From assembly GCF_003334815.1 (NCBI RefSeq), contig NZ_QOWO01000002.1: a stretch of 64,000 bases of DNA; one strand, given 5' to 3'. Shown here piece by piece: positions 61,393-61,485 of this stretch. The position numbers and the translations under genes were made by a program. Numbering within the stretch: position 1 is the first letter of the stretch; each line of letters starts with the position of its first letter. The notes beneath the pieces are model-generated. The model saw only the letters and a program-made list of their open reading frames with translations. It did no database searches and was not told the DNA's origin. Origin of the DNA: Escherichia coli (GTDB lineage Bacteria > Pseudomonadota > Gammaproteobacteria > Enterobacterales > Enterobacteriaceae).

Positions 61393-61485
61393 ATGTGGTA
61401 TTTACTTTGGTTCGTCGGCATTTTGTTGATGTGTTCGCTCTCCACCCTTGTGTTGGTATGGCTGGACCCGCGTCTGAAAAGTTAA
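61393..61485 (+). CDS. appX: Cytochrome bd-II small subunit AppX (YccB), 30 aa
   Basis: ATG 61393 after ggag encodes MWYLLWFVGILLMCSLSTLVLVWLDPRLKS, a single-helix CydX-like peptide; below the ORF-track cutoff. Confidence 0.75.
   Translation: MWYLLWFVGILLMCSLSTLVLVWLDPRLKS

Follow-up and report, generated by a model that had tools for sequence, protein, structure and literature searches.

The appX reading frame and its surroundings

In the window (the whole stretch of Escherichia coli DNA that was analysed, 64,000 nucleotides of contig NZ_QOWO01000002.1), the genes for the two large subunits of cytochrome bd-II, appC and appB, are followed on the same strand by a short open reading frame and then by appA (Table 1). 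The short frame opens with an ATG at position 61393 and comprises 30 codons and a TAA stop; its translation is MWYLLWFVGILLMCSLSTLVLVWLDPRLKS, and its DNA starts with ATGTGGTAT and ends with AAAAGTTAA. The gene is already known from E. coli K-12 as appX (cbdX, formerly yccB) and codes for the single-helix third subunit of bd-II. The initial annotation had proposed a 30-codon appX that starts at this ATG, 8 nt behind a ggag, and both the sequence and the translation are exactly as it claimed, with GGAG at positions 61381–61384 and positions 61385–61392 between this motif and the start codon. It had also stated that the frame falls below the cut-off of the ORF track. This is true and is an effect of length only: the ORF listing has a default minimum of 60 aa, compared with the 30 aa of AppX, and appX shows up when the minimum is set to 20 aa. 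The gene itself is publicly annotated. In the RefSeq record of E. coli K-12 MG1655, whose coordinates are converted to those of the window by an offset of +56899, the CDS WP_000270305.1 ('cytochrome bd-II oxidase subunit CbdX') coincides exactly with 61393–61485, so that RefSeq calls precisely this ORF cbdX, in agreement with the name appX.

The location between appB and appA was likewise borne out, by NCBIfam models as well as by RefSeq. appX lies directly downstream of appB (cbdB) and on the same strand, where a small bd-II subunit is expected, at a distance of 12 nt from appB (an ORF of 378 codons) and 79 nt from appA. The gene order in MG1655 is hyaDEF, appC, appB, cbdX and appA, with etk/etp/gfcE next on the opposite strand. 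With the alternative models for subunits I and II, NF011677 and NF011579, the genes upstream of appX stay under the cut-offs. For two of the neighbours, the longest ORF starts ahead of the RefSeq start codon: the appA ORF at ATG 61535, 10 codons ahead of 61565 (the NCBIfam alignment begins at residue 9), and the appC ORF at GTG 58682, 2 codons ahead of 58688 (the alignment begins at residue 3).

Table 1. Features of the app locus, in window coordinates
Feature	Position	Strand	Evidence and remarks
appC, bd-II subunit I (AppX packs against its product)	58688..60232	+	NF011609, 1198.7 bits (cut-off 1025); RefSeq
appB, bd-II subunit II	60244..61380	+	NF011602, 832.8 bits (cut-off 681); RefSeq
appX Shine-Dalgarno sequence, AAGGAG	61379..61384	+	overlaps the appB stop codon TAA (61378-61380); 8 nt to ATG
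appX (cbdX, yccB) CDS	61393..61485	+	RefSeq cbdX; NF011333; PF08173; 7OSE/7OY2 identity; pN/pS
REP-like palindrome in the appX-appA spacer, not part of the gene	61495..61526	.	hairpin of -24 kcal/mol, z = -5.4
appA, periplasmic acid phosphatase/phytase, outside the oxidase	61565..62863	+	NF007552, 846.3 bits (cut-off 585); RefSeq

A 1,001-base stretch spanning appX shows 100% identity with E. coli K-12 MG1655 and was matched in 5,421 of 5,426 complete E. coli genomes; a shorter query of 131 bases centred on appX matched 5,419 of the 5,426. Among the matches listed, which were sampled across the whole ranking, cbdX was annotated in 25/25 genomes with an intact match. A small number of E. coli genomes match the appB-appX-appA stretch at as many as 4 places, and 5 places are plasmid-borne; the app locus is thus duplicated or mobilised on occasion. 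In the swine isolate E. coli EL361 (locus L049, NZ_CP193497.1, positions 2576–4004), the match is interrupted inside appX at approximately window position 61444. Here, a gene for an IS3-family transposase stands between appB and appA and cbdX is unannotated, a natural disruption of appX which indicates that this strain, at least, can do without the gene.

The only strong hairpin in the region lies downstream of the appX stop codon and is formed by a REP-like palindrome (GCCTGATGCGGCGC ... GCATCGCATCAGGC), both arms of which match GCCTGATGCGNNGC. As it lacks a following T-run, the palindrome does not qualify as a classic intrinsic terminator. A role in stabilising or punctuating the appCBX portion of the transcript is possible. 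Comparable palindromes occur at the equivalent spot after appX in other Escherichia species. An Rfam scan of positions 58000–64000 returned no family at gathering score. A consensus scan for an internal promoter or terminator was empty near 61380–61560, and its overall counts were little above those of shuffled sequences.

Family membership and conservation

With 118 ORFs of at least 20 aa overlapping the last 8 kb of the window, an open frame by itself is not beyond chance. What raises appX above chance is its family-model score, its identity to solved protein chains and its conservation across genera with a coding substitution pattern. With NF011333, the NCBIfam equivalog model of CbdX, AppX reaches 80.8 bits (cut-off 57, E = 4.2e-23), the alignment covering residues 1–30 of a 30-position model. 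It also matches Pfam PF08173 (YbgT_YccB; E = 8.7e-12, 45.3 bits), residues 1–25 aligning to positions 1–25 of the 27 in the model and taking in the N-terminal MWY..W motif. The CydX chain of bd-I (6RKO_X) aligns to AppX residues 1–24 with 10/24 identities (E = 0.009). The homology search against CydX/AppX small proteins that had been proposed as a check is positive. By comparison, the CydX equivalog model TIGR02106 gives only 18.9 bits, under its cut-off of 31.6, and the gene does not follow cydB in a cydAB operon. Of the earlier description as a hydrophobic peptide of the CydX type, the family assignment stands and CydX proper does not: given the failed equivalog test and the location in the bd-II operon, AppX is, by sequence and context, classed as the bd-II paralogue of CydX within the CydX/YbgT-YccB family.

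A search of PDB sequences gave 30/30 identity of AppX from the window to chain C of 7OSE and, in 7OY2, to residues 1–30 of chain X, whose construct has 61 residues and presumably carries a tag. The name given to both chains is 'Putative cytochrome bd-II ubiquinol oxidase subunit AppX'. Residues 2–24 are uncharged and are followed by a short polar tail, DPRLKS, so that both the sequence and the 7OSE model describe a peptide of about 30 residues with one transmembrane helix. On the positive-inside rule, the DPRLKS tail would face the cytoplasm.

For the comparison between species, one genome per bacterial and archaeal species was scanned with ATGTGGTAYYTNYTNTGGTTY, a pattern encoding MWY[L/F][L/F]WF, which yielded 47 loci. 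The pattern fixes the first seven codons and is blind to AppX homologues with a different N-terminus; because of this constraint, the analysis of substitutions was limited to codons 8–29. At 32 of the 47 loci the pattern opens unrelated, mostly much shorter frames, which provide a negative control. The remaining 15 carry an AppX-like ORF and belong to five genera: Escherichia (E. albertii, E. whittamii and further representatives), Citrobacter (6 species), Salmonella (S. enterica subsp. arizonae), Edwardsiella (3) and Ca. Schmidhempelia (Ca. S. bombi). As the Edwardsiella anguillarum locus is incomplete at the end of its sequence, 14 complete loci were compared. Their frames have 29–34 codons and encode MWYL[LF]WFVGILLMC[SAT]LST..., with that of Schmidhempelia being more divergent. 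At 13 of the 14 loci, the frame starts 16–17 nt past the tblastn match to AppB (69–97% identity), and in Schmidhempelia 26 nt past a match of 53% identity.

A GGAG-type purine run overlaps or abuts the stop codon of the AppB homologue at 13 of the 14 orthologous loci (TACTAAGGAG, TACTGAGGAG, TACTAGGAGG, TATTAGGGAG); the counterpart of this ribosome-binding site in Schmidhempelia is TGAAGAGGAAGAG. The exception is C. werkmanii, where GGGAGG sits 6 nt upstream of the stop codon. Since the overlap of stop codon and Shine-Dalgarno sequence is conserved across genera, translation of appX is probably coupled to that of appB.

Over codons 8–29, summed for 13 species against the window, the annotated frame gives a pS of 0.42, a pN of 0.069 and a pN/pS of 0.16, figures which, with the window as single reference and related species on the other side, describe a pattern and not an independent-sample statistic. 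In the other five frames, pN/pS over the same codons ranges from 0.37 to 4.2. Purifying selection acts on the amino-acid sequence, and in the appX frame only. The ratio of 0.16 and the conserved ribosome-binding site indirectly favour translation of appX at its native expression level. Variable columns number 10, 2 and 16 at the first, second and third codon positions, respectively, the first-position changes being largely synonymous exchanges between Leu codons of the TTR and CTN type. All 13 Enterobacterales loci have Leu at positions 4, 11, 12, 16 and 19; Leu5 is replaced by Phe in Citrobacter.

appA stands next to appX in the Escherichia loci only. A tblastn search with AppA gave zero matches in the flanks examined in Citrobacter, Salmonella arizonae, Edwardsiella and Schmidhempelia (the loci labelled for the context downstream of appX were L002, L007, L008, L011, L023, L029, L031, L034 and L044). 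Within these flanks, a link between appA and the oxidase operon thus seems to be particular to Escherichia, and since the non-Escherichia loci keep appX without an AppA homologue there, appX belongs with the oxidase genes rather than with appA. At several non-Escherichia loci, a hairpin and then T-rich sequence come right behind appX. The most divergent AppX-like ORF is that of Ca. Schmidhempelia bombi (L011, positions 2396–2500; 34 aa, MWYLLWFVGVLLACSLAVLTGLWIDKKSDDKPSQ). It is preceded by the CydB/AppB homologue with 53% identity to AppB, and its charged tail is longer and recalls CydX. This ORF may represent an intermediate between CydX and AppX or simply the only bd small subunit of that organism.

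AppX in cytochrome bd-II and related small subunits

The initial annotation had further supposed an association of the peptide with cytochrome bd oxidase. This is established by the identity to the solved chains, together with the published purification: when bd-II was purified from appCBX-expressing cells, AppX was identified by mass spectrometry in a band of ∼4 kDa, placing the peptide physically in the AppC-AppB complex (PMC8585947). In the 7OSE preparation, studied by cryo-EM, AppX is a single transmembrane helix that touches AppC transmembrane helices 1, 5 and 6, and its position in bd-II overlaps completely with that of CydX in bd-I (PMC8585947). The structural preparations relied on over-expression of appCBX from a plasmid (PMC8585947). 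Two AppX helices form the main contact of the bd-II dimer seen in 7OSE, through a leucine-zipper-like face (Met1, Leu4, Leu5, Val8, Leu11, Leu12, Ser15, Leu16 and Leu19) whose Leu positions are conserved among AppX homologues according to the authors, who left undecided whether the dimer exists in the membrane (PMC8585947). A review agrees with this picture of AppX and notes that all other bd structures are non-dimeric (PMC8951039).

Taken together with the layout of the locus, these observations suggest the following scheme. appX is the third gene of the appC-appB-appX(-appA) transcription unit, and AppX would be made from an AAGGAG ribosome-binding site of its own, which shares bases with the appB stop codon; we propose that, through coupling to appB, the peptide is supplied together with the two large subunits. 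The helix inserts into the inner membrane and packs on transmembrane helices 1, 5 and 6 of AppC, where it would stabilise the bundle of helices in which hemes b595 and d of the quinol:O2 oxidoreductase bd-II are bound. From the analogy with CydX in bd-I and from the structural contacts, we infer that the helix is likely needed for the assembly or stability of bd-II, at this heme b595/d bundle of AppC.

Among the known small subunits of bd oxidases, AppX of the window is the same as AppX/CbdX of E. coli K-12 in all its residues (30/30), in its location between appB and appA and in its DNA. CydX (YbgT) resembles it in being a subunit with a single transmembrane helix, encoded directly after the gene for subunit II and belonging to PF08173; the two have a common N-terminal motif, MWY..W..G.LL.CS, and occupy the equivalent position on subunit I. 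CydX differs in its length of 37 aa, in its longer acidic C-terminal tail and in serving bd-I (cydABX). In addition, Leu4 and Leu16 of AppX correspond to Phe in CydX, Leu5 to Ala and Leu19 to Ile (PMC8585947), replacements which may explain why bd-I has not been observed as a dimer. CydS of the cytochrome bd from Geobacillus thermodenitrificans is likewise a helix of ∼4 kDa beside CydA and a proposed stabiliser, but it tilts towards CydA TM6 and makes no contact with TM4 (PMC8951039). CydH/CydY (YnhF), the fourth subunit of bd-I, is also a single helix on subunit I, but it occupies the cleft between TM1 and TM9 of CydA and its gene lies outside the oxidase operon (PMC8951039). The bd-II preparation is without a counterpart of CydH/CydY (PMC8585947, PMC8951039).

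Alternative readings and significance

Several other readings of the interval between appB and appA were weighed. Given how abundant short ORFs are in the last 8 kb, 30 codons with a GGAG nearby could arise by chance, and the frame might be a spurious ORF in the spacer that yields no functional peptide. This is hardly credible, being contradicted by the identical chain in 7OSE and 7OY2 and its identification by mass spectrometry, by the score above the cut-off of a curated family model and by a frame that stays open across five genera with a pN/pS of 0.16. The 32 other pattern matches, with their unrelated and mostly much shorter products, tell against it as well. A chance ORF was rejected on the family score, the solved-chain identity and the cross-genus conservation. 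The overlap of the ribosome-binding site with the appB stop codon, and the position of appA downstream in the same orientation past a stable REP-like hairpin, would also suit a stretch that acts as an RNA or as a translated spacer coupling appB to appA, its amino acids being irrelevant. We give this next to no credence, since the pN/pS value and the presence of just 2 variable second-position columns in 22 codons point to selection on the peptide, and the ORF is kept after appB in Citrobacter, Salmonella, Edwardsiella and Schmidhempelia without an AppA homologue in the examined flank. A structured RNA in particular was rejected because the region between 58000 and 64000 has zero Rfam matches at gathering score. 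Finally, the window also contains two open frames that are longer than appX and overlap it, one starting with GTG (61395–61535, + strand, 46 codons) and one with TTG (61256–61528, - strand, 90 codons), and either might be the real gene in its place. Their pN/pS ratios are 3.8 (+) and 4.2 (-), as expected for non-coding frames over a real gene; the plus-strand frame contains stop codons in most Citrobacter loci as well as in those of Salmonella, Edwardsiella and Schmidhempelia, and neither ORF is in RefSeq. Both were rejected on these ratios and on the orthologue stop codons, and the probability that either is the true gene is negligible. The reading that remains, appX as a member of the appC-appB-appX(-appA) unit whose product is a helix packed on AppC in bd-II, is in our judgement close to certain as the best explanation of the whole, and none of the results speaks against it.

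A different question is whether AppX, as a real subunit, has a main role beyond the passive stabilisation of AppC, either in the dimerisation of bd-II or as a spare subunit for bd-I when CydX is limiting. For dimerisation speak the AppX-AppX interface in 7OSE, which is the main dimer contact and involves conserved Leu positions (PMC8585947), and the invariance of Leu4, Leu11, Leu12, Leu16 and Leu19 in the 13 Enterobacterales loci. However, the second bd-II structure was not reported to be dimeric, and the existence of the dimer in the membrane was left undecided (PMC8585947, PMC8951039). Redundancy of CydX and AppX, which have been called paralogues, was judged plausible enough for testing, but the phenotypes of cydX point mutants were unaltered in a delta-appX background (PMC6005532). 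We therefore consider a main role of this kind unlikely, and it is similarly doubtful that the leucine-zipper-like face makes bd-II a functional dimer in the membrane or that AppX exchanges with CydX between the bd oxidases. If either were true, AppX would have a regulatory or organisational role beyond stabilising AppC.

Regardless of this question, AppX as the single-helix third subunit of bd-II was already known, and the existence and identity of its gene hold nothing new. The discovery value is accordingly small, as the gene has a RefSeq annotation and a curated family model of its own, and two cryo-EM structures show its product. The locus does illustrate how such a small protein can be recovered from sequence alone, through a ribosome-binding site where the preceding gene stops, a hydrophobic single helix and the operon context. 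AppX-type helices are integral subunits of the bd oxidases, prokaryote-specific respiratory enzymes that are studied as drug targets, and appX is an example of how the length cut-offs of ORF tracks conceal real, functional small membrane proteins.
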